From Corallococcus sp. NCRR (GTDB taxonomy: Bacteria; Myxococcota; Myxococcia; Myxococcales; Myxococcaceae), in NCBI RefSeq assembly GCF_026965535.1, contig NZ_CP114039.1, forward strand, positions 7,971,461 to 8,035,460: a stretch of 64,000 bases of DNA, read 5' to 3'. The position numbers and the translations under genes are program-made. The notes beneath the pieces are model-generated. The model was not told the origin of the DNA. It saw only the letters and a program-made list of their open reading frames with translations, and made no database searches. Shown here one piece after another: positions 6,195 to 64,000 of this stretch (position 1 is its first letter; the number at the start of each line of letters is the position of its first letter).

Positions 6195-7781
6195 ATGCCC
6201 CATCGGTTTGATTTCCTGGTCATGGGCGGCGGCGTGGCCGGACTGTCGTTCGCCCTGCAGGCGGCCCGGCACGGCACGGTCGCCGTGCTCACCAAGCGCG
6301 AGCGCGGCGAAGGCAACACCGCCTACGCGCAAGGGGGCATCGCCGGTGTGCTGTCCCCCACGGACAGCTTCGACGCGCACATCGACGACACGCTCGTCGC
6401 GGGCGCGGGCCTGTGCCACCGCGACGCGGTGGAGGTGACGGTGCGGGAAGGGCCCGCGCGCCTCAAGGAGCTGGTGGCGCTGGGCGCGGCCTTTGATCAG
6501 CGCGGCGGCGAGTTCGACCTCACGCGCGAAGGGGGCCACTCCGCCCGCCGGATCATCCACGCGGGAGACGTCACCGGCCGCGAGGTGCAGCGCGCGCTGC
6601 TGGCCGCGTGCGACGAGCAGCCCAACATCACCTTCTTCCAGAACACGGCCGCCATCGACCTCATCCTGGACCGGCGTCCACACGCCCCGGCCGGCAGCCG
6701 GTGCCTGGGCGTGTACGCGCTGATGGAGGACGGCTCCATCGAGCGGTTCCTGTCCAAGGTGACGGTGCTGGCCACGGGCGGCGCGGGCAAGGTGTACCTC
6801 TACACGTCCAACCCGGACGTCGCGACGGGTGACGGCGTGGCCATGGCGTACCGCGCGGGCGCGCGCGTGGCGAACATGGAGTTCTACCAGTTCCACCCCA
6901 CGTGCCTCTTCCACCCGGAGGCCAAGAGCTTCCTCATCAGCGAGGCGCTGCGCGGCGAGGGCGGCAAGCTGCGGCTCAAGGGCGGCCAGACGTTCATGGA
7001 CCGCTACCACCCCATGAAGGACCTGGCCCCGCGCGACGTGGTGGCGCGCGCCATCGACGCGGAGCTCAAGCGCACGGGCAACGACTGCGTCTACCTGGAC
7101 ATGACGCACCTGGGCCGCGCGTACCTCACCGAGCGCTTCCCCAACATCTACGCCACCTGCAAGGCCTTCAACATCGACATGGCCGTGCAGCCCATCCCCG
7201 TGGTGCCCGCGGCCCACTACCAGTGCGGCGGCGTGGTGACGGACCTGCACGGGCGCACCAACATCCCGGGCCTCTACGCCATCGGCGAGGTGTCCTGCAC
7301 GGGCCTGCACGGCGCGAACCGGCTCGCGTCCAACTCGCTCCTGGAGGGCCTGGTCTTCGGCCACCGCGCGGTGCAGGTGGCCTCCGAGGAGCTGGCGTCG
7401 CTGACGCTGCCGAAGGAGGACCCGCCCGCCTGGGACTCCGGCAGCGCGGTGGACTCCGACGAGAGCGTGGTCGTCACCCACAACTGGGATGAGATCCGCC
7501 GGCTGATGTGGAACTACGTGGGCATCGTCCGCACGGACAAGCGGCTGATGCGCGCACGGCGCCGGCTGGAGCTCCTGCGCGAGGAGATCCGCGACTACTA
7601 CTGGCGCTTCAAGGTCACCCGCGACGTCATCGAGCTGCGCAACATCGCGGAGGTGGCGCACCTCATCGTGGACTGCGCGAGCCGCCGCAAGGAGAGCCGG
7701 GGGCTGCACTACACCCTGGACTACCCGCACACGGACGAGCACCAGGGCACGCGCGACACCGTCCTCTCCCGGGAGCTGTGA
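6195..7781 (+). CDS. nadB: L-aspartate oxidase
   Basis: FAD-binding N-terminus FDFLVMGGGVAGLSFAL with …AQGGIAGVL…; full-length similarity to the NadB/fumarate-reductase flavoprotein family (…RPYHPMKDLAPRDVVARAI…HYQCGGV…). The start is ATG 6195. Confidence 0.85.
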   Translation: MPHRFDFLVMGGGVAGLSFALQAARHGTVAVLTKRERGEGNTAYAQGGIAGVLSPTDSFDAHIDDTLVAGAGLCHRDAVEVTVREGPARLKELVALGAAFDQRGGEFDLTREGGHSARRIIHAGDVTGREVQRALLAACDEQPNITFFQNTAAIDLILDRRPHAPAGSRCLGVYALMEDGSIERFLSKVTVLATGGAGKVYLYTSNPDVATGDGVAMAYRAGARVANMEFYQFHPTCLFHPEAKSFLISEALRGEGGKLRLKGGQTFMDRYHPMKDLAPRDVVARAIDAELKRTGNDCVYLDMTHLGRAYLTERFPNIYATCKAFNIDMAVQPIPVVPAAHYQCGGVVTDLHGRTNIPGLYAIGEVSCTGLHGANRLASNSLLEGLVFGHRAVQVASEELASLTLPKEDPPAWDSGSAVDSDESVVVTHNWDEIRRLMWNYVGIVRTDKRLMRARRRLELLREEIRDYYWRFKVTRDVIELRNIAEVAHLIVDCASRRKESRGLHYTLDYPHTDEHQGTRDTVLSREL

Positions 7782-10380: not shown

Positions 10381-11754
10381 CTACAGACCCTCCAGGTACG
10401 CCACCAACTGCGCCGAGTAGCGTAGCTGCATCAGCAACTCCGCCTTGCGCGATTCGTCCAGCGCGGCGAACACGTCCGCGAGCAGCGACAGGTCCTGGTT
10501 GAGGGCGCCCATGCGCTGCGCGACGTCCACCGCCAGTTCGTCCGCGTCGATCTCCTCCTCGACGCCCTCCGGGGCCAGCGTCTCCTCGGTGGCGAGCGCC
10601 TTCTCCAGCATGTCGCGCACCGGCGCCGTCAGTCGGCCTTCGGTTTCCAGCGACTCGCGCTTGGCCTCCAGCACGTCGTGCTCCACCGGCGAGGCGTGGA
10701 TGGCCTCCGCCAGGGACAACAGGAGCGCGTCCTCGTCGGACAGCTCCTCGTGCACGCGCACCTGGACCTGGTCGCGCTTGAGGAAGCGCAGCGCCGCCAC
10801 GCGCCGGAAGCCGCAGATGAGCTGGTAGCGGTCCTCTCCACGCGGGCGCACGTCCACCGGGAACAACTGGCCCAGCCGCGCCAGGTCCGTCGCCAGCTCG
10901 GACACGTCGCCCTCGTCCCGCAGGCGGAAGGTGGTGTCCTCCTCCAGTCGCTCCAGCGGCAGCACCATCGCCGTCACCTGTCCCATCACGCGCGGCTCGA
11001 TGGCCTGCGCGTGGGGCTCCCCTTCCGAAGTCGCCGCGCCGTCGTTGGCGCCCTGTTCCGAACCGTCTCCGGAGCCCGTGGAGCCCGCGTCCTCCTGGCT
11101 CGCACGGCTCGCCACGTCCCAGATGCCGGAGCTCAGCAGCGCGTCGTCCGCGCCCGACACCGGACCGGAGCGCGGCTCCTCCAGCACGTCCTTCGCCTCG
11201 CCGCCACCGTCGCTGCCCGTCCCGGACGCGTCCTGGACGCTCTCGCCCGAGGACAGCTCCACGTAGCGGCCGGGGCCTTGAGAGGCCTCCGCGCCACTCC
11301 CCGTGCCCTCTCCCTGCCCGGCCGCGTCCGCTCCGCCCTGCCCACCAGCCGCGCTGGAATCCGTCCCGGCCTCCGCGTCGCGGGCCTCGCTGGCGTCCGA
11401 GCGGCTGCCCTCGCCACCGGCCGCGCTGACAGCAGGGCTGTGCGAGAAGCCGTGGCCCTCGCCATCGGCCGAGCTCGCGTCGGAGCCACTGGCAGCGCCC
11501 GTGTCGGAACCCTGGCCCCCAGCGCTGGCCTCGGTCGCGCTCGCGGCGGCCTGCCCACCCTCTCCGGGCAGGTCGGTCTGGGCCCCACCCGCTTCAGCCT
11601 GGGGGGCACCTTCCGGCGTCACGTCTCCACTCGCGCCCTCGCCATGCTTCGGCGCGGACGCGTCACTCACGCCCTCCTGCTGGGACGGCGTCGCGTTCTC
11701 TCCAGGTGTGCCCGGCATCCCTTCCTGTCCCTCGGCCCTGTGCTCGGCGTCCAT
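10381..11754 (-). CDS. padC: ParB-like protein PadC
   Basis: The C-terminal half carries a ParB/Srx N-terminal-domain signature (…[32 protein letters not shown]…). The N-terminal ~220 aa are an acidic G/S/A/E/D-rich low-complexity region. The gene sits immediately downstream of three bactofilin genes, as established for M. xanthus bacNOP-padC. Confidence 0.75.
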
Positions 11755-43484: not shown

Positions 43485-45335
<1,851 letters not shown>

Positions 45336-58140: not shown

Positions 58141-59199
58141 TCATGTTGCGTGAACGGCGCCTCGCTGGCCGCCCTCCTCCTTGTGTGACACGACGCGTTC
58201 GGCGAGCCGGACGGCGGACAGGGGGGCGCTGCCTTCCGCCTTGTTGTTGATGGTCACGAAGACGGGGCGGTCGCGCCGCACCGCGGCCATGCACACGCGG
58301 GCCAGCACGTCGCGGGTGCCCATGTCCTCGTCCACCAGCCGGTTGAAGGGCGCGTAGCGGGCGTAGGCCTCCTCGTAGCCCAGGTTCGGCGGCAGCATCC
58401 AGCGCACCACCACGGCGCGGGCCTCGAAGGCGCGCGTGAGCTTCGCCTGCCGCGCGACGGGCGGCATGTGGGCCCACACCGCGAGCACCGGGCTCACGCC
58501 CGTGTCCGCGAGCGCCTGGGCGAAGCCTTCCGTGAGCAGCTCCTCGTTGCGCACCTCCACCGCGTACAGCGGCCCTTTGGGCAGCGCCGAGAAGAACGCG
58601 TGCAGCCGCTCCACGAAGCGGCCCGCGCCGCCGAGCGCCGCGGGGTCCTGCGGCGGGAACTGGAAGACGAGCGGCCCGGCCTTGTCGCCGAGCCCCTCCA
58701 GGAAGGGCGCCACCACGTGGTCCACGGCGTAGGCCGCCTGGAGGAAGCGGTCATTCACCTGCCCCCGGTGCGCGCCGTACCGCTCGTGCACGGGAAAGCG
58801 CGCCAGCGTGCAGGCCTCGTGCGCCTTCACCAGGAAGCGGAAGCCGTCCGGCACCTGCTGGGCGTACTCGGCGAAGGTGGTGGCCGGCACCGGCGCGTAG
58901 AAGGTCCGGTCGATGCCCACCGTGCGCAGCACCGGGTGGTGCGCGTAGGCGGCCAGGCCCTCGCGCGCCAGCTGGGTCGTGCTGGCTTCATGGTCGTAGA
59001 CGAGCCCGTTCCACCCCGGGAAGGTCCACGACGACGTGCCCAGGTAGACGCCGCGTGGGAGCTGCTCGCCCAGCAGGCGCAGGCTGTCGGAGGGTTCGGC
59101 GGGCCCCACCGGCTGGGTCCTGCGCCGCGATGACGCCGGGGGCTCCTCCACCGCGCCGGTGAAGAGGTCGAACTGCGCGGGTCGTCGCGGTGCGCTCAT
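58141..59199 (-). CDS. DUF72 (UPF0759) family protein
   Basis: DUF72 signature …DRTFYAPVPATTFAEYAQQVPDGFRFLVKAH…PLVFQFPP…. Confidence 0.7.
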   Translation of the reverse strand: MSAPRRPAQFDLFTGAVEEPPASSRRRTQPVGPAEPSDSLRLLGEQLPRGVYLGTSSWTFPGWNGLVYDHEASTTQLAREGLAAYAHHPVLRTVGIDRTFYAPVPATTFAEYAQQVPDGFRFLVKAHEACTLARFPVHERYGAHRGQVNDRFLQAAYAVDHVVAPFLEGLGDKAGPLVFQFPPQDPAALGGAGRFVERLHAFFSALPKGPLYAVEVRNEELLTEGFAQALADTGVSPVLAVWAHMPPVARQAKLTRAFEARAVVVRWMLPPNLGYEEAYARYAPFNRLVDEDMGTRDVLARVCMAAVRRDRPVFVTINNKAEGSAPLSAVRLAERVVSHKEEGGQRGAVHAT

Positions 59200-59372
59200 G
59201 CGTGCAGCTCCTCTCCCACGGAGGGGACGGCGGGGAAGCCCTGGGAGTAATCCCCAGGCCCAGGCGATGCAGCAGGTTGCCCCGATTCAGGGAGACGTTC
59301 CAGGTTTCCGGCACGCCCCCCAGGCGGGCGGCCACGCACGGACAGTCCTCTGCCCATCACCACGGTATGTGA

Positions 59373-59388
59373 TTGGACCTCTGTCCAA
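59373..59388. promoter_or_regulatory. Palindromic operator TTGGAC-CTCT-GTCCAA upstream of the PAS-LuxR regulator gene
   Basis: A perfect 6+6 inverted repeat with a 4-nt spacer, 77 nt upstream of the PAS-LuxR start. An identically spaced copy lies upstream of cheA (60554-60569). Confidence 0.5.
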
Positions 59389-59464
59389 ATGCAAACGCAG
59401 TCGCCTCGCGGTAAGCTATTCAAACCGAGGAATTCAGCACTACCCGTGTAAAGCTTGAGCGGGG

Positions 59465-60409
59465 TTGCAACGGCCGGGGGGCCTCATGGACTGGTCGTTG
59501 ACCGCATCGCTGCTCGCGGAGCGGGACACACGTCCCATCGTCGTGATGGACCGGCGCGGCCGTATCGAGCTGGCGAACGGCGCGTTCACGTCGCTGCTGG
59601 GCCGGCCCCGTGAGGAGTTGTTGGGGCGCCGCTGGACGGATGTCTGCACGCCCCTCGAGCATGGGCGCGAGGTGGGACAGGCGCTGCGGGCCATCTTCAC
59701 CAGCGCCGAGACCCGGCTGGAGACGGAGGTGCTCACGCGCGATGGCGAGCGGCTGTCGGTGGAGCTGGACGTGGCCGCCGTGGGCCGCCCTCCCCTTCGG
59801 CTGGTGGCCATTGTCACCCGCGCCTCCGCGCCCCGCTCCGTCCCCGAGCGCACCGCCGCCCCGGAGGCGGTCCGGGCCCAGGGGTCCCACCGGGACCTGA
59901 GCTACGAAATCTCCACCGAGCTGTCGTCGTTCGGGACGCTCAAGGCGGTGTGGACGTCCGGAGAGGCGCGGCAGGAGGAGATGGTGGGCCGGCATTGCTT
60001 CGGCGCCTTCGCGCACCGCGACGCGCCCTGTCTGGACTGCCCGTTGACGGCGGCGGCGCCGGCCTCCTGGCCGCACACCATCGTGCGGCAGGCCTCCGAG
60101 CTCGCCGAGGGCTACGAGGTCGTCACCGCCACGCCCACGGGCGCCGGCACCGCGCGCATCAGCGTGCACACCATCGGGGATGAGACCCTCAGCGGCCTCT
60201 TCGAGGCGAAGGTGCGGCGCATGGCCCACGCCGCGCGGCTGTCCGAACGGGAAGGCGATGTGTTGCGATATCTCGCGCTCGGCCGCTCCCCCACCGACAT
60301 CTCGACCGTGTTAGGGATTACCGAGCGCACGGTGAAATTCCACCAGGCCAACCTGCTCCGGAAGCTGGGAGCGGAGACGCGCTACGACCTGCTCCGCCTG
60401 TTCTTCTGA
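59465..60409 (+). CDS. PAS-domain LuxR-family transcription regulator
   Basis: N-terminal PAS (…IVVMDRRGRIELANGAFTSLLGRPREELLGRRWTDV…) and a C-terminal LuxR/GerE HTH (EGDVLRYLALGRSPTDISTVLGITERTVKFHQANLLRKLG). Confidence 0.75.
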   Translation: MQRPGGLMDWSLTASLLAERDTRPIVVMDRRGRIELANGAFTSLLGRPREELLGRRWTDVCTPLEHGREVGQALRAIFTSAETRLETEVLTRDGERLSVELDVAAVGRPPLRLVAIVTRASAPRSVPERTAAPEAVRAQGSHRDLSYEISTELSSFGTLKAVWTSGEARQEEMVGRHCFGAFAHRDAPCLDCPLTAAAPASWPHTIVRQASELAEGYEVVTATPTGAGTARISVHTIGDETLSGLFEAKVRRMAHAARLSEREGDVLRYLALGRSPTDISTVLGITERTVKFHQANLLRKLGAETRYDLLRLFF

Positions 60410-60553
60410 CCAGGGCACCTTCCCTCCGGGACAGCTTTCAGGCCGTTGACGTTGGAGGATGCTGGGCCTTCGACTCCGGAGTCTTGTGGGTCGGGGGGGC
60501 CGTTGCCCATGGGCAGCGCCGGTCAATTCCGTCTCATCAAACACATACAGTCC

Positions 60554-60569
60554 GTTTGGACTTTTGTCC
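60554..60569. promoter_or_regulatory. Palindromic operator TTGGAC-TTTT-GTCCAA upstream of cheA
   Basis: Same half-sites and spacing as the site at 59373-59388, 46 nt upstream of the cheA ATG (60615). A second perfect palindrome TGCCCATGGGCA lies at 60504-60515. Confidence 0.5.
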
Positions 60570-60614
60570 AAGGGCGTCCTGTCCGTGGGTGACACTCCGG
60601 GCTGGGACGACGTG

Positions 60615-62753
60615 ATGCGGGAGTTCCTGCTCGAGTCCCGCGAGCATGTGCAGAGCATTGAAGCGACGGTGCTGGAGCTGGAGGCGCAGCCGGGCTCGCA
60701 GCCGTTGCTGGCGCAGCTGTTCCGGGCTTTGCACACCGTGAAGGGCACCTGCGGCTTCCTGGGCTTCAGCCGCCTGGAGGCGCTGATGCACGCCGCCGAG
60801 GAGATGCTCGGCCTGGCGCGCGACCGGCGCCTGGTGCTGGACCGCGAGCGCGTGTCCACGCTGCTGGCAGCGGCGGACGCGGCGCGAGGGACGCTGGAGC
60901 ACATCGAGGCGACGGGGCTGGAGCCCGCGGTGGACCACTCGGCGCTGCTCGCGCGCATGGCGGGCGCGGCGGCGGGCGTGGCGCCACAGGAGGTGCACGA
61001 GCCCCTGACGCCTCCGGGCGCCCTGCCCTGGCGCGGCGCCGCGACCGGGGTGGACTCGAAGCTGCGCGTGGACGTGGCGCTGCTGGACCGGTTGATGAAC
61101 CTGATGGGCGAGCTGGTGCTGGCGCGCAACCGCATCCTCCAGTGCGCGGCCTCGCCCACGCCGGGCGCGGACCTGACGACCGCGTCGCAGAGGTTGGACG
61201 TCGTCACCACGCAGGTGCAGCAGGTGGTGATGAAGACGCGGCTCCAGCCCGTGGGCCAGGTGTGGAACCGCTTCCCCCGGCTGGTGCGGGAGCTGGCGCA
61301 CGGGTGCGGCAAGCAGGTGCGGCTGCGGTTGCAGGGCGCGGACACGGAGCTGGACAAGACGCTGGTGGAGGCGCTGCACGATCCGCTCACCCACCTCTTG
61401 CGCAACGCCGTGGACCACGGCGTGGAGACGCCCGAGCAGCGCCGCGCCGCGGGCAAGCCGCCCGTGGGGTGCCTGACGCTGAGCGCGTCGCATGAGGGCG
61501 GGCTCGTGCACCTGGGCATGTCCGACGATGGCGCGGGCATCGACGTGGAGCGCGTGCGGCAGGTCGCGGTGCAGCGGGGCCTGCTCACGGCCGACCAGGC
61601 GGCGCGGCTGCCGGACGCGGACGCGCGGATGCTCATCTTCATGCCGGGCTTCAGCACCGCGGAGCGCGTCACGTCGCTGTCCGGCCGGGGCGTGGGCATG
61701 GACGTGGTGCGCTCGCAGGTGGAGCGCATTGGCGGCACCGTGGAGGTGCACAGCCGGCCCGGCCAGGGCACGACGTTCACCCTGAAGATCCCCCTCACGC
61801 TGGCCATCATCCCGGCGCTGCTCGTGACCTGCCGGGGCGACCGCTACGCGCTGCCGCAGGCCTCTCTTCGGGAGGTGGTGTTCCTGGAGCCGGCCCAGGC
61901 GCGCAAGGACATCACCCGCATCCAGGGCGCGTGCGTCCTGCGGCTGCGAGGGGAGCTGCTGCCGCTGGTGGTGCTCGCCGCCGAGCTGGGCGTGGGGCCG
62001 GCGATGCCGGACCTGGACGAGGGCGCCACCGTCGTCGTGTTGCAAGCCGGCGAGCGCACCTTCGGGCTTTGGGTGGACGCCATCCACGACACGGAGGAGA
62101 TCGTCGTCAAGCCGCTGTGGAAGCACCTGAAGGGGCTGGCCTGCTACGCGGGGGCGACGGTGCTGGGCGACGGGCGCGTGGCGCTCATCCTGGACGCCAT
62201 GGGCCTGGGCCGCCGCGTGGGCACCGTCACCGAGGCGCAGGCCCCGGTCGTCATCCCGGAGGCCGCTCCGGAGCTGCCTGCCCCGGAAGAGCCGCGCGAG
62301 CGCGTGCTGCTGTGCCGCACGGGCGCGGAGGGCCGCGTGGCCATTCCCCTGTCTCGCGTGGCCCGGCTGGAGGAGCTGCCCGCGTCGGACGTGGAGCGGC
62401 TGAGCGGCGGCATGGAGATGGCGCGCTACCACGGGCAGCTGCTGCCGCTGGTGCGCGTGGCCTCCGTGCTGGAGGCGAGGCCCGGCGCGACGGAGCGGAT
62501 GGCGCGGAACCTTCATGTCGCCCTGGGCGAGTCGCTGTCCGTCGTCGTCACCCAGCACGCGGACACGCGCGTGGGGCTGGTGGTGGACGCCATCCTCGAC
62601 GTCGCGGAGGTGGAGCTCGCGCTCCAGCGGGAGACGCGCCGTCCGGGCGTGCTGGGCTCCATGGTGGTGCAGGCCCGGGCCACCGAGTTCCTGGACGTGG
62701 AGGGCACCGTGCGCGCCGTGCACCCGGAGCTGCTGACAGGCGGTGCGCCATGA
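60615..62753 (+). CDS. cheA: CheA histidine kinase with two C-terminal CheW-like domains and no receiver
   Basis: Hpt domain (…LFRALHTVKGTCGFLGFSRLEALMHAAEEML…), dimerisation domain, HATPase_c (…DDGAGIDVERV…GRGVGMDVV…), then two consecutive CheW-like domains. The start is ATG 60615. Upstream ORF sequence is non-coding. Confidence 0.8.
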   Translation: MREFLLESREHVQSIEATVLELEAQPGSQPLLAQLFRALHTVKGTCGFLGFSRLEALMHAAEEMLGLARDRRLVLDRERVSTLLAAADAARGTLEHIEATGLEPAVDHSALLARMAGAAAGVAPQEVHEPLTPPGALPWRGAATGVDSKLRVDVALLDRLMNLMGELVLARNRILQCAASPTPGADLTTASQRLDVVTTQVQQVVMKTRLQPVGQVWNRFPRLVRELAHGCGKQVRLRLQGADTELDKTLVEALHDPLTHLLRNAVDHGVETPEQRRAAGKPPVGCLTLSASHEGGLVHLGMSDDGAGIDVERVRQVAVQRGLLTADQAARLPDADARMLIFMPGFSTAERVTSLSGRGVGMDVVRSQVERIGGTVEVHSRPGQGTTFTLKIPLTLAIIPALLVTCRGDRYALPQASLREVVFLEPAQARKDITRIQGACVLRLRGELLPLVVLAAELGVGPAMPDLDEGATVVVLQAGERTFGLWVDAIHDTEEIVVKPLWKHLKGLACYAGATVLGDGRVALILDAMGLGRRVGTVTEAQAPVVIPEAAPELPAPEEPRERVLLCRTGAEGRVAIPLSRVARLEELPASDVERLSGGMEMARYHGQLLPLVRVASVLEARPGATERMARNLHVALGESLSVVVTQHADTRVGLVVDAILDVAEVELALQRETRRPGVLGSMVVQARATEFLDVEGTVRAVHPELLTGGAP

Positions 62754-63238
62754 GCGGCTTCCGCCAGCTGTGCTCGTTCCAGGTGGGCGACCACCTGTTC
62801 GGCCTGGACATCGAGCGGGTGCAGGAAATCCTGCTGCCGCCCCCGCTCACGCGCGTCCCTGGCGCTCCCTCGGAGGTGGCGGGGCTGCTCAACCTGCGCG
62901 GGCAGATCGTCCCCGCCATCGACCTGCGCCGCCGCCTGGACCTGCCTGAAGGCACCGCCCCCGCGGACGCGCCCCACGTCGTCCTGCGCGGCGACGACGG
63001 CGCGGTGAGCCTTCGCGTGGACGCCATTGGCGACATCCTCCCCTTCGAGAAGTCGGACCTGGCGCCGCTGCCGGACAACCTGCGCGGGCCGCTGCGCTCG
63101 CTGCTGTTGGGTGTCCATGCGCTGCCGGACCGGCTGCTGCTCGTGTTGTCCGCGGACGCGGTGGTGGACGGCCTCTCGCCCGCGTCCAGCGCTCCCGCCT
63201 CCCCTTCCTTCCCCGTGCTTCCCCAGGAGTCCCGCTGA
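62750..63238 (+). CDS. cheW: CheW adaptor protein
   Basis: CheW domain (…FQVGDHLFGLDIERVQEILLPPPLTRVPGAPSEVAGLLNLRGQIVPAIDLRRRL…). ATGA overlap with the cheA stop. Confidence 0.8.
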   Translation: MSGFRQLCSFQVGDHLFGLDIERVQEILLPPPLTRVPGAPSEVAGLLNLRGQIVPAIDLRRRLDLPEGTAPADAPHVVLRGDDGAVSLRVDAIGDILPFEKSDLAPLPDNLRGPLRSLLLGVHALPDRLLLVLSADAVVDGLSPASSAPASPSFPVLPQESR

Positions 63239-64000
63239 TGGCCCGCCCGACCGCGCCCGCCGTGAAAACCACCCCCTTCCAGCGCCTGGGCGGCAAGGCC
63301 CCCCTGACGGCCGCCGTGCAGAAGCTCTACGCGCGGGTGATGACGGACGCGCTGCTCAAGCCCCACTTCCGCGGCGTGGACATGGTCGAGCTGCAGCGCC
63401 AGATGGTCGCGTTCCTCACCCGCTTCCTGAGAGGGCCGGGCATCTACAAGGGCCCGTCGATGCGCGACGTGCACGCGGGCATGGAGCTCAAGCCCCATCA
63501 CTTCGGGCGCGTCGTTGAACACCTGGCCAGCGTGCTGGATGAGCTGGACGTGCCGGGCCCTGTCGCTCGCGAGGTGCTGGCCGCCATGGGCACGTCGCGG
63601 GACGACAGCGTGGCGAAGGCCGCCTCCCGGACCACCGCTGTGAAGCGCGCTCCGGCGCGTGCCTCCCGCACGGAGGGACGCCGGGTCGCCGCGGCGTCCG
63701 CGCCCGCTGCCCGGTCCTCCCGCCGCGCGCCCACGCCGCTCGGTGGGGCCCTGAACGAGGCGGTGCTGGACGCGGCGCGGGTCAACCTGTTCGTGCTGGA
63801 CGCGGACCTGGCCATCGTCTTCTCGAACGCGGCCTCCTCGGAGGCCATCGAGCGCATCGGGCAGACGGCCGCCTTCCGCGACGGCTCGGGGGACGTGGGG
63901 AGCGACTTCCTCGCCCACTTCGAGCATCAGCTGCGGCTGGAGGAGGAGCGGCTGAGCGACCCGGCGTCGCTGCCGCACGAGGCCCACTTCGCGGTGGGCC
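63238..64000 (+). CDS. Globin-domain (truncated-hemoglobin-like) sensor protein, 3'-truncated by the window edge
   Basis: ATG 63238 overlaps the cheW stop (TGATG). N-terminal bacterial-globin signature (…FQRLGGKAPLTAAVQKLYARVMTDALLKPHFRGVDMVELQRQMVAFLT…MRDVHAGMELKPHHFGRVVEHL…). A second PAS-like segment follows (…VNLFVLDADLAIVFSNAASSEAIERIG…). The ORF is not in the supplied track because it has no stop within the window. Confidence 0.6.
   Translation, partial: MARPTAPAVKTTPFQRLGGKAPLTAAVQKLYARVMTDALLKPHFRGVDMVELQRQMVAFLTRFLRGPGIYKGPSMRDVHAGMELKPHHFGRVVEHLASVLDELDVPGPVAREVLAAMGTSRDDSVAKAASRTTAVKRAPARASRTEGRRVAAASAPAARSSRRAPTPLGGALNEAVLDAARVNLFVLDADLAIVFSNAASSEAIERIGQTAAFRDGSGDVGSDFLAHFEHQLRLEEERLSDPASLPHEAHFAVG

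Follow-up and report, generated by a model that had tools for sequence, protein, structure and literature searches.

The chemosensory cluster Cc-5 of Corallococcus coralloides has been described as a putative aerotaxis cluster by Sharma, Parales and Singer in 2018 (PMC6194562). Among the chemosensory systems of myxobacteria, no other has been proposed to be of the aerotaxis type, and neither the output nor the regulation of Cc-5 is known (PMC6194562). In the 64-kb stretch of DNA analysed here (the window), the first Cc-5 genes are preceded by a gene for a PAS-LuxR protein, which is itself flanked by two TTGGAC-N4-GTCCAA palindromes. The locus raises the question of whether these palindromes are operators of the protein encoded between them and through which sites this protein might act on the chemosensory operon.

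The Cc-5 operon and the adjacent PAS-LuxR gene

Pfam searches bear out the gene assignments of the preliminary description, and the genes are arranged as follows.

58141 to 59199, minus strand: divergent DUF72 gene (Pfam)
59486 to 60409, plus strand: regulator gene, 307 aa, with a PAS domain, a second PAS-like domain and a GerE/LuxR helix-turn-helix (Pfam, alignment, AlphaFold, Foldseek)
60585 to 62753, plus strand: cheA, first gene of the Cc-5 cluster, with Hpt, dimerisation, HATPase and CheW domains
62750 to 63238, plus strand: cheW, with a Pfam CheW domain
63238 to 64000, plus strand: 5' part of the globin-PAS-MCP gene, with a Bac_globin domain, continuing past the window end

The true start of cheA is the GTG at 60585, as judged from the substitution pattern at third codon positions and from the gene call in Corallococcus sp. 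M7. The full-length orthologue of the globin gene encodes globin, PAS and MCPsignal domains. Together, Pfam, the gene calls at the L068 locus and the published account (PMC6194562) give the Cc-5 order as cheA-cheW-globin/PAS/MCP-ABC1-ABM-cheB-cheR, with no CheY. Whereas that study reports Cc-5 in one genome and contains no discussion of promoters, operators or the PAS-LuxR gene upstream, the cluster was found here in at least 12 Corallococcus genomes and MAGs.

The regulator has the architecture of a one-component PAS-LuxR protein: Pfam identifies PAS_4/PAS_9/PAS and GerE domains and no receiver domain. Its ATG (59486) is backed by an upstream indel that breaks the frame and by alternation between ATG and TTG at this position. 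In the alignment, the second PAS-like domain holds an invariant C171 and an invariant P-C182-x-x-C185-P motif. The AlphaFold model (pLDDT 80) comprises a PAS domain, a PAS-like domain and the helix-turn-helix, and Foldseek searches with this model returned tandem-PAS proteins and EL222. The latter, a light-activated LOV-HTH protein, also has a PAS-family sensor fused to a GerE/LuxR helix-turn-helix and was recovered by both sequence and fold; however, it has a single flavin-binding LOV domain, whereas no LOV signature is claimed for the regulator. Among solved structures, the closest helix-turn-helix is that of CviR (E = 1.4e-10; ERTVKFH.AN..RKL), although the regulator carries two PAS-like domains and lacks the autoinducer-binding domain of CviR-type proteins. 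The recognition helix, RTVKFHQANLLRKLGA, is identical across all Corallococcus lineages and in distant homologues.

An N-terminal PAS domain joined to a C-terminal LuxR helix-turn-helix in a one-component protein is also found in PimM, PteF and FscRI of Streptomyces. At the -35 region of their target promoters, these proteins bind the box CTVGGGAWWTCCCBAG, which is palindromic over 16 bp and has outer CT...AG (PMC9774167). The box of the myxobacterial proteins (see below) differs in sequence, and their targets at this locus would be chemosensory genes rather than the polyketide clusters of the PimM type. Moreover, the myxobacterial proteins are longer (approx. 300 aa) and possess a second PAS-like domain with three invariant cysteines, and this extra cysteine-containing domain argues for a subfamily separate from the PimM type.

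Two TTGGAC palindromes and their surroundings

The two palindromes and the elements that overlap them are the following.

59368 to 59400, plus strand: conserved promoter-proximal block, TGTGATTG...GTCCAAATGCAAACGCAG, delimited by the conservation profile and containing site 1
59373 to 59388, unstranded: site 1, TTGGAC-CTCT-GTCCAA, -113 to -98 relative to the regulator ATG, with the divergent DUF72 ATG 174 nt away
60549 to 60562, plus strand: alternative dyad AGTCC-GTTT-GGACT, flagged by a minus-strand terminator scan
60556 to 60571, plus strand: site 2, TTGGAC-TTTT-GTCCAA, -29 to -14 relative to the cheA GTG, with the presumed Shine-Dalgarno sequence AAGGG following immediately

The pattern TTGGACNNNNGTCCAA has exactly two exact matches in the window, TTGGACCTCTGTCCAA at site 1 and TTGGACTTTTGTCCAA at site 2, and both are perfect 16-bp 6-4-6 dyads with the geometry of lux-box-class operators. 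The preliminary description had reported two inverted repeats with the same half-sites and spacing; both are present, but the interval that it gave for the second, 60554-60569, lies 2 nt too low. The pair is real and non-random: 100 dinucleotide-preserving shuffles of the window contained no exact copy, and approx. 0.001 exact matches per window are expected for such an A+T-rich half-site. By our own estimate, the probability that such a pair arose by chance within the window is roughly 1e-3 or less. When up to two mismatches were allowed, one extra match was found (at 6666), compared with 1.27 expected.

Chance can nonetheless be given a more specific form, in which a drifted leader-hairpin stem and a partly palindromic promoter spacer have come to resemble each other in the lineage of this strain and M7, site 1 possibly being functionless. 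Outside the window, the exact pair was found only in Corallococcus sp. M7, which is 96% identical, and the exact motif is absent from 67 genome loci of relatives. In other species, the sites carry one to four mismatches, and the two sites of any one species match each other at approx. 10 of 16 positions. Furthermore, the class of perfect 6-4-6 palindromes shows no enrichment (36 in the window vs. 42.5 expected), and pairs that share half-sites are common among G+C-rich stems (52 of 60 simulations). Yet the TTGGAC pair is the sole A+T-rich pair of this kind among the 6-4-6 palindromes of the window, both copies fall within approx. 460 nt of non-coding DNA beside one gene, and part of site 1 is invariant among nine genomes (see below). 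Taken with the shuffles, these observations make a coincidental likeness quite improbable. Target-site duplication or mobile-element ends were also considered and rejected, as the two sites have unrelated flanks and spacers and resemble each other less in other species. Pairing between the RNAs of site 1 and site 2 was likewise discarded, since inspection across species revealed no covariation between the sites.

The two sites differ in how they have changed. At site 1, the nine C. coralloides-group genomes share an invariant outer TTG and an invariant right half, GTCCAA, over its entire length, and differ in the inner left half and in the spacer. Since the right half and the flanks are invariant across these genomes and neighbouring bases vary, site 1 is under constraint. 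The changes are one-sided and non-compensatory. At the L070/71 loci, the core is kept as GGAC-GTTT-GTCC, and GGTAAGCT is kept in most orthologues. By contrast, site 1 is missing at five orthologous loci (L008-L010, L069 and L072, of the praedator, terminator, BB11-1 and L072 lineages), which encode a regulator with the same helix-turn-helix; from two lineages the whole promoter-proximal block around site 1 is missing. A promoter for the regulator gene is predicted from the sequence, with a -35 element ATGCAA at 59389-59394, a 17-nt spacer and a -10 element TAAGCT at 59412-59417; if this prediction is right, site 1 would be centred at approx. -43. A sigma-70 consensus scan found no promoter. 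In a search for sigma-54 promoters (TGGCAC-N5-TTGCW), the best candidates had three to five mismatches; one GG-N10-GC candidate with a poor -24 element lies inside an invariant block upstream of cheA (60492). A small ORF overlapping site 1 upstream of the DUF72 gene (75 aa, 59196-59423) was dismissed, as it has no gene call at L068.

At site 2, it is the dyad and not the sequence that is conserved, which points to a leader RNA hairpin. Four lineages have four different stems at this position, (T)TGGAC/GTCCA(A), TGCGCG/CGCGCA, CGCGCGA/TCGCGCG and CCTGCG/CGCAGG, all with a 4-nt spacer and all 13-15 nt before the GTG; the stems comprise four to seven contiguous Watson-Crick pairs around the spacer. 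RNAalifold detected changes on both sides at two of three inner pairs, and compensatory pairing of the kind expected for an mRNA-leader hairpin was found at site 2 only. These pairs were counted on a manual gap-free register, because the structure-aware MAFFT alignment shifted lineages by one or two columns. The outer triplets vary (CAA, CAG, AAA, AAC, ATG). It counts against a hairpin that the stem is weak in five of the nine C. coralloides-group genomes, with three contiguous pairs. The alternative dyad at 60549-60562 shares its GGAC arm with site 2, so that the two are mutually exclusive as RNA hairpins, and it is the preferred hairpin at L002, L003 and L007. An intrinsic terminator was rejected for both sites, neither of which is followed by a plus-strand T-run; the terminator scan gave one match (the alternative dyad, on the minus strand) against 0.6 expected from shuffles. 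As only 13 nt separate the end of site 2 from the start codon of cheA, there is no room for a promoter downstream of it, and as no sigma-70 or sigma-54 promoter was detected, transcription of site 2 is an assumption. Most likely, site 2 forms a short stem-loop in the leader of the cheA mRNA, abutting the ribosome-binding site on its 5' side. With a stem of 5-7 bp, a mostly pyrimidine 4-nt loop and a position 13-15 nt before the start, site 2 resembles known leader stem-loops that stabilise mRNA or modulate translation; in contrast to these, its stem has become degraded in several C. coralloides-group species, and it matches no Rfam family. Finally, no second copy of the G+C-rich dyad of L008-L010 was found upstream of their regulator gene, which indicates that the two site positions do not change together.

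A box shared by regulator homologues

The homologues of the regulator provide a separate route to its recognition sequence. A motif, CTGNCC-N4-GGNCAG, lies 82-170 nt upstream of the genes of most distant homologues; it is exact in 9 of 28 cases and has at most one mismatch in 17 of 28. Exact copies number 9 in 12.6 kb of upstream DNA, compared with 2 in 511 kb elsewhere (Poisson P = 4.6e-18). The published CviR box, CTGNCCNNNNGGNCAG, has the same consensus (PMC12114271). A weight matrix was built from the sites of homologues with only 28-40% identity, and its training sites score 12.2-19.2. On this matrix, the TTGGAC sites score at background (-1.8 and +1.8) and thus do not match the family box: in the family sites (n=21), C at position 1 and G at position 16 are almost invariant, whereas the TTGGAC sites have T and A. 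Moreover, the core GGAC-N4-GTCC was found upstream of only 1 of 28 distant homologues and is therefore not the family operator.

The best intergenic matches to the family box in the window lie in tandem between the regulator gene and cheA.

60398 to 60413, unstranded: Box A, CTGTTC-TTCT-GACCAG, across the regulator stop codon, candidate cognate box, score 11.6
60419 to 60434, unstranded: Box B, CTTCCC-TCCG-GGACAG, 21 bp after Box A, with 150 nt to the cheA GTG, score 11.1

Box A ranks third on the matrix among the 64,000 positions of the window and Box B fourth. All orthologues have Box A at an unchanged offset; the 5' part of the box encodes L-F-F-stop, and its conservation there is not independent evidence. 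Box B has one mismatch to the CviR box, and both its half-sites are invariant in 17 orthologous sequences with seven different spacers, which makes it the best candidate operator of the PAS-LuxR regulator. It counts against such a role that both boxes score just below the training range, and an alternative reading of Box B is a small UCCC-N3-GGGA stem with which the regulator gene ends on its 3' side.

Related loci provide examples of the same association. At L017, the regulator gene is followed by a perfect box and then by cheY-like, cheW, cheR, MCP, cheA and cheB genes, and at L032, a globin-PAS-MCP gene is preceded by two boxes at a distance of 72-97 nt. Genes of the che type were found at L017 and L021; the genes downstream of box-bearing distant homologues are heterogeneous, and no single conserved target was found among them. 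As the regulator family and its box recur across Myxococcota, regulons could be predicted from complete genomes.

Which protein, if any, binds the palindromes

The explanation that we tentatively prefer, with a probability of about 0.45, is that the two palindromes are cis-elements of different kinds and not a pair of operators for the adjacent PAS-LuxR protein, and that the regulator acts via Boxes A and B. The PAS/Cys-PAS sensor protein, with a recognition sequence of CTGNCC-N4-GGNCAG as deduced from its homologues, would bind these boxes either as one dimer or as a pair of dimers sharing a helix face and would thereby control, whatever the sign of the regulation, transcription of the globin-coupled Cc-5 chemosensory operon. 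The leader of this operon would carry the site 2 hairpin, which may act in mRNA stability, processing or translation. Site 1 may be a lux-box-like site for some transcription factor, situated in the block that abuts the presumed -35 element. Identical half-sites in two regions flanking one gene are left unexplained by this reading. The preliminary description had suggested that the chemosensory module is under a PAS-sensing transcription factor; the family box and Boxes A and B lend that proposal independent support and make control of the Cc-5 operon by the LuxR-type regulator plausible, though through sites other than the TTGGAC palindromes. In this way a candidate regulator of Cc-5 can be named, namely a two-PAS, cysteine-bearing LuxR-type protein with a CviR-like box and with Boxes A and B as candidate sites. 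Nothing here would be surprising in kind, since mRNA-leader hairpins are ordinary and so are LuxR-type proteins with 16-bp dyads. In practical terms, the striking palindromes are probably not the sites of the regulator, and mutating the TTGGAC sites alone could mislead.

The preliminary description had also suggested that one dimeric regulator, possibly the LuxR protein itself, acts on both palindromes, resulting in autoregulation and in control of cheA, cheW and the globin-MCP gene. Its geometric part stands, as 16-bp 6-4-6 dyads suit LuxR/GerE dimers and are the layout of CviR and lux-box operators of quorum-sensing LuxR proteins. The regulator gene lies between the two sites, which agree with the CviR and family boxes in length and in the skeleton xTGxxC-N4-GxxCAx (T2, G3 and C6 as well as G11, C14 and A15 are common to the CviR box and the TTGGAC sites). 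Site 1, at -113, falls inside the range of -82 to -170 in which homologues have their own boxes, and its centre near -43 would resemble that of a lux box if the inferred -10 element is right. In addition, the site 2 variants of L001 and L006, GTGGACTTCCGTCCAG and CTGGACCTTCGTCCAA, score 6-7 on the weight matrix. The choice of the LuxR protein as binder fares worse. Positions 1, 5, 12 and 16 differ from the CviR box, and the first and last of these are also wrong for the family box, against which both sites score at background; the core GGAC-N4-GTCC occurs upstream of only one of 28 distant homologues. Site 2 lies 14-29 nt before a start codon, unlike lux boxes, which are found at -35. Lineages with the identical helix RTVKFHQANLLRKLGA lack site 1 and have unrelated dyads at site 2, so that half-sites are not conserved in orthologous promoters served by the same recognition helix, except partially within the C. 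coralloides group. Furthermore, better-matching and better-conserved boxes are available in the same intergenic region as site 2. Binding of both palindromes by the adjacent protein is hence considered improbable.

If a different protein binds, the mismatch to the family box of the neighbouring regulator becomes irrelevant. An unlinked dimeric factor specific to the C. coralloides group, e.g., another LuxR/NarL-type or helix-turn-helix protein, would provide a second input at the regulator promoter and would use site 2, which lies just ahead of cheA, for a roadblock or for occlusion. The two exact copies, set against none in the shuffles, agree with such a factor, as does the 6-4-6 geometry, which helix-turn-helix dimers typically use (PMC12114271, PMC9774167). 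Sequences resembling TGGAC-N4-GTC(C/A)A, with zero to four mismatches, occur at both positions throughout the nine genomes of the group, and the core TGGAC-N4-GTC is kept at both; a common core is what a shared factor predicts, and it counts against the two sites being separate elements. On the other hand, no third TTGGAC-N4-GTCCAA copy occurs either in the 64-kb window or within the approx. 20 kb that surround each of 12 orthologous loci. Site 2 varies in its outer triplets, although operators of this type usually conserve them, and the dyads of unrelated sequence in other lineages imply a structural role for site 2 regardless. An unlinked factor is accordingly regarded as doubtful. It is very improbable that the palindromes on either side of the regulator gene form a second, lineage-specific class of operator, bound by the regulator in an alternative (e.g., redox- or O2-dependent) state or by a partner factor, with a 1.2-kb DNA loop or a dual DNA/RNA use of site 2 coupling autoregulation to translation-proximal control of Cc-5. 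If true, this would amount to a transcriptional oxygen/redox switch on a chemosensory system without CheY.

NarL/LuxR-family dimers recognise other boxes of the 6-4-6 layout, such as the ComA box TTGCGG-N4-CCGCAA and the DosR box with its core GGGAC-N4-GTCCC. By analogy, and as a lead only, the TTGGAC motif might be compared with both, as it has the outer TTG...CAA of the former and the inner GGAC...GTCC of the latter; ComA and DosR, though, are response regulators with receiver domains and come from unrelated bacteria.

Two further elements lie between the regulator gene and cheA.

60472 to 60483, unstranded: palindrome GACTCCGGAGTC in the cheA upstream region, partly conserved, with non-compensatory changes
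60488 to 60520, plus strand: nearly invariant 33-nt block GGGTCGGGGGGGCCGTTGCCCATGGGCAGCGCC, containing the 12-bp palindrome TGCCCATGGGCA

An Rfam scan of both intergenic regions gave one sub-threshold match, to the che1 RNA (RF02935) at 60488-60612, and no family that fits; with 19.7 bits and E = 0.63-3.7 against a gathering threshold of 54.1, this match was taken as chance. In the literature searched, che1 RNA was mentioned in Streptomyces studies only. The 12-bp palindrome that the preliminary description had placed at 60504-60515 is indeed found there as TGCCCATGGGCA, and it is identical in every orthologue that possesses the che operon. RNAalifold places it within a hairpin, CGUUGCC-CAUG-GGCAGCG, in which the lack of variation leaves no covariation possible.

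Two TTGGAC palindromes beside the regulator gene

The pattern TTGGACNNNNGTCCAA is present in exactly two copies in the 64-kb window and in none of 100 dinucleotide-preserving shuffles, which confirms the pair of palindromes reported in the preliminary description. The second copy exists but lies at 60556-60571, the interval first given for it being 2 nt too low; the 12-bp palindrome TGCCCATGGGCA was found at 60504-60515, as described. With up to two mismatches allowed, one extra, unrelated match appears (6666) vs 1.27 expected.

Features around the regulator gene
58141-59199, minus strand: DUF72 gene
59373-59388: site 1, TTGGACCTCTGTCCAA, exact match
59389-59394 and 59412-59417: candidate regulator promoter, -35 ATGCAA and -10 TAAGCT with a 17-nt spacer
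59486-60409: gene for the PAS + GerE/LuxR regulator, 307 aa
60556-60571: site 2, TTGGACTTTTGTCCAA, exact match
After the regulator gene: cheA, cheW and a globin fusion (globin-PAS-MCP in orthologues)

Taken together, perfect 6-4-6 palindromes show no enrichment in the window (36 observed vs 42.5 expected). Those rich in G+C often share half-sites; among A+T-rich ones, the TTGGAC pair alone does so. By our own estimate, its chance probability in a window of 71% G+C is about 1e-3 or lower, and identical A+T-rich half-sites in two non-coding stretches flanking one gene are too unlikely to dismiss. Sixteen further Corallococcus-type loci were compared. The exact motif was found in no locus of the species-representative genome set, and at both places in Corallococcus sp. 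M7 only, whose DNA is 96% identical to the window.

Relative to the ATG of the regulator gene, site 1 spans -113 to -98. Across nine genomes of the C. coralloides group, its outer TTG, its whole right half GTCCAA and the flanks TGTGA and ATGCAAACGCAG are invariant, and variation falls in the inner left half (G/A, A/C, C/G) and the spacer; the changes are one-sided and non-compensatory. The core GGAC-GTTT-GTCC is retained in loci L070/71, and nothing comparable was found in L008, L009, L010, L069 or L072. Site 1 is a conserved element adjoining the candidate promoter, which would set its centre near -43, as in a lux box; GGTAAGCT is kept in most orthologues.

A family box upstream of PAS-LuxR genes

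In the regulator, a PAS domain is followed by a second PAS-like domain, then by a helix and finally by the GerE helix-turn-helix. The AlphaFold model of the protein has a pLDDT of 80, and Foldseek matches include tandem-PAS proteins (PpsR, DosP, HIF/ARNT) and the LOV-HTH protein EL222. The second PAS-like domain (residues 138-230) carries an invariant C171 and P-C182-x-x-C185-P, which could form a metal, Fe-S or redox site; such a site would go well with the neighbouring globin-MCP operon and its theme of oxygen sensing. The nearest solved helix-turn-helix is that of CviR (ISERTVKFHVANVIRKL vs ITERTVKFHQANLLRKL, E = 1.4e-10). All Corallococcus lineages have one and the same recognition helix, which, as RTVKFHQAN[LV]L[RQ]KLGA, is unchanged in homologues from other Myxococcota at 28-40% identity.

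In a palindrome census of the regions upstream of 28 such homologues, one 16-bp dyad recurs, CTGNCC-N4-GGNCAG (typically CTGCCC-TCYC-GGCCAG-TT), mostly with the start codon 82-170 nt downstream. Of the 28 loci, 9 have an exact copy and 17 a copy within one mismatch; exact copies number 9 in 12.6 kb of upstream sequence vs 2 in 511 kb of other sequence (Poisson P = 4.6e-18). Members of a myxobacterial PAS-LuxR family (loci L011-L055) thus have a CviR-like dyad in front of their own genes, a distribution that suggests autoregulation. The dyad equals the published ideal CviR site (PMC12114271). Its architecture is shared by CTVGGGAWWTCCCBAG, the box that Streptomyces PAS-LuxR regulators bind at the -35 of target promoters (PMC9774167). 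In three loci (L014, L017 and L019), two regulator paralogues are adjacent, in tandem or divergent.

A symmetrised weight matrix was built from 21 family-box sites, which themselves score 12.2-19.2, vs -1.8 for site 1 and +1.8 for site 2. The four top-scoring positions in the window are listed below with the guessed cheA promoter; searches for sigma-70 and sigma-54 promoters found no convincing candidate.

Matches to the family box and guessed promoter
60239-60254: CTGTCCGAACGGGAAG, score 12.9, best match, in the regulator coding sequence (LSEREG)
43767-43782: perfect palindrome CTGGTCCTGCGACCAG, score 12.1, second-best match
60398-60413: Box A, CTGTTC-TTCT-GACCAG, score 11.6, spanning the regulator stop codon
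60419-60434: Box B, CTTCCC-TCCG-GGACAG, score 11.1
60435-60440 and 60458-60463: CTTTCA and GATGCT, 17 nt apart, which with Box B form an unproven guess at the cheA promoter

The best match carries the half-sites of Box B in inverted form and may simply reflect codon usage of the conserved LSERE motif. Boxes A and B start 187 and 166 nt upstream of the cheA GTG, 21 bp from each other, and keep these offsets in every orthologue with the operon. The Box B half-sites do not change in 17 orthologous sequences, among which the spacer takes seven forms; such a pattern is the classic dimer-operator signature. In Corallococcus, no family box precedes the regulator's own gene. The same layout as in the window recurs in a Polyangiales MAG (L017), where a perfect box, CTGTCCTCCGGGACAG, lies 79 nt after the regulator gene and precedes cheY-like, cheW, cheR, NIT-MCP, cheA and cheB genes, and in an Archangium MAG (L032), where a related globin-PAS-MCP gene is preceded by two boxes at a distance of 72-97 nt. 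Other homologues adjoin unrelated genes; thus, the target set is lineage-dependent.

The cheA leader and the probable sites of regulator action

The cheA start codon is the GTG at 60585: among 10 aligned orthologues, substitutions at 60585-60615 fall mostly at third codon positions of the GTG frame, indels occur upstream, and the strain M7 gene call agrees. This start places site 2 at -29 to -14. In the C. coralloides group, site 2 keeps TGGAC-N4-GTC with variable outer bases. Other lineages carry at this position, 13-15 nt before the GTG, wholly different dyads with a 4-nt spacer: TGCGCG-CCTT-CGCGCA (L008-L010 and L069), CGCGCGA-GCGT-TCGCGCG (L070/71) and CCTGCG-CGTC-CGCAGG (L072). RNAalifold predicts a site 2 hairpin, with both-side changes at two of the three inner pairs in an alignment that is not structure-aware. 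Since its dyad is kept while the sequences differ, site 2 behaves as a structure-constrained element, and site 1, with its one-sided changes, as a sequence-constrained one. The best explanation for site 2 is a stem-loop in the leader of the cheA mRNA, adjoining the ribosome-binding site. An alternative dyad, AGTCC-GTTT-GGACT (60549-60562), overlaps site 2 and has the GGAC arm in common, so that an RNA could form only one of the two hairpins at a time; in L002, L003 and L007, the upstream dyad AGTCC-N4-GGACT forms the stronger stem.

Independent comparative evidence supports the earlier proposal that the chemosensory module is under the PAS-LuxR factor, but the TTGGAC palindromes are probably not the responsible sites. 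Judged from sequence comparison, the regulator most likely acts through Boxes A and B. That it binds both palindromes, autoregulating and controlling the cheA operon, as first proposed, is improbable given their matrix scores. A serious rival, if still an unlikely one, is that a single factor, distinct from the neighbouring regulator, binds both palindromes, because their exact half-site identity beside one gene is hard to attribute to chance and the TGGAC-N4-GTC core is common to both positions in the C. coralloides group. Lux-type dyads and a hairpin in a leader are both elements of an ordinary kind; what is new is that a PAS-PAS-LuxR family of myxobacteria now has a defined box, and the Cc-5 aerotaxis operon has concrete candidate operators upstream.

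The Cc-5 cluster and neighbouring conserved stretches

The operon downstream of the regulator is the putative aerotaxis cluster "Cc-5" of Sharma, Parales and Singer 2018 (PMC6194562), who described it in only 1 of 34 myxobacterial genomes, with CheY absent, and left the upstream regulator and promoters undiscussed. The present comparison finds the cluster together with the regulator in 12 or more species or MAGs of Corallococcus (L001-L010 and L068-L074). Farther downstream, orthologues carry ABC1 kinase, ABM monooxygenase, cheB and cheR genes.

A 33-nt block at 60488-60520 (GGGTCGGGGGGGCCGTTGCCCATGGGCAGCGCC), which contains the 12-bp palindrome, hardly varies across the full set of 15 orthologous cheA leaders, while adjacent non-coding sequence diverges, and is conserved more strictly than site 1 or site 2. 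It can form a hairpin, which lacks covariation because there is no variation. Its match to Rfam che1 was weak and not significant, and this identity was rejected.

Upstream of DUF72 (59200-59335, minus strand), about 130 nt are conserved in all Corallococcus lineages, even those without site 1, and GACGTTCCAGGTTTCCGGCA (59294-59313) is invariant. DUF72 may have its leader or promoter in this stretch, which is overlapped by an ORF of 75 aa (59196-59423) without a gene call in strain M7. In Corallococcus interemptor (L004), the entire che operon is absent at about 10925-11000: a cheA N-terminal coding fragment is joined about 20 nt past the regulator stop codon, Box B is destroyed, and the regulator gene and site 1 are retained.
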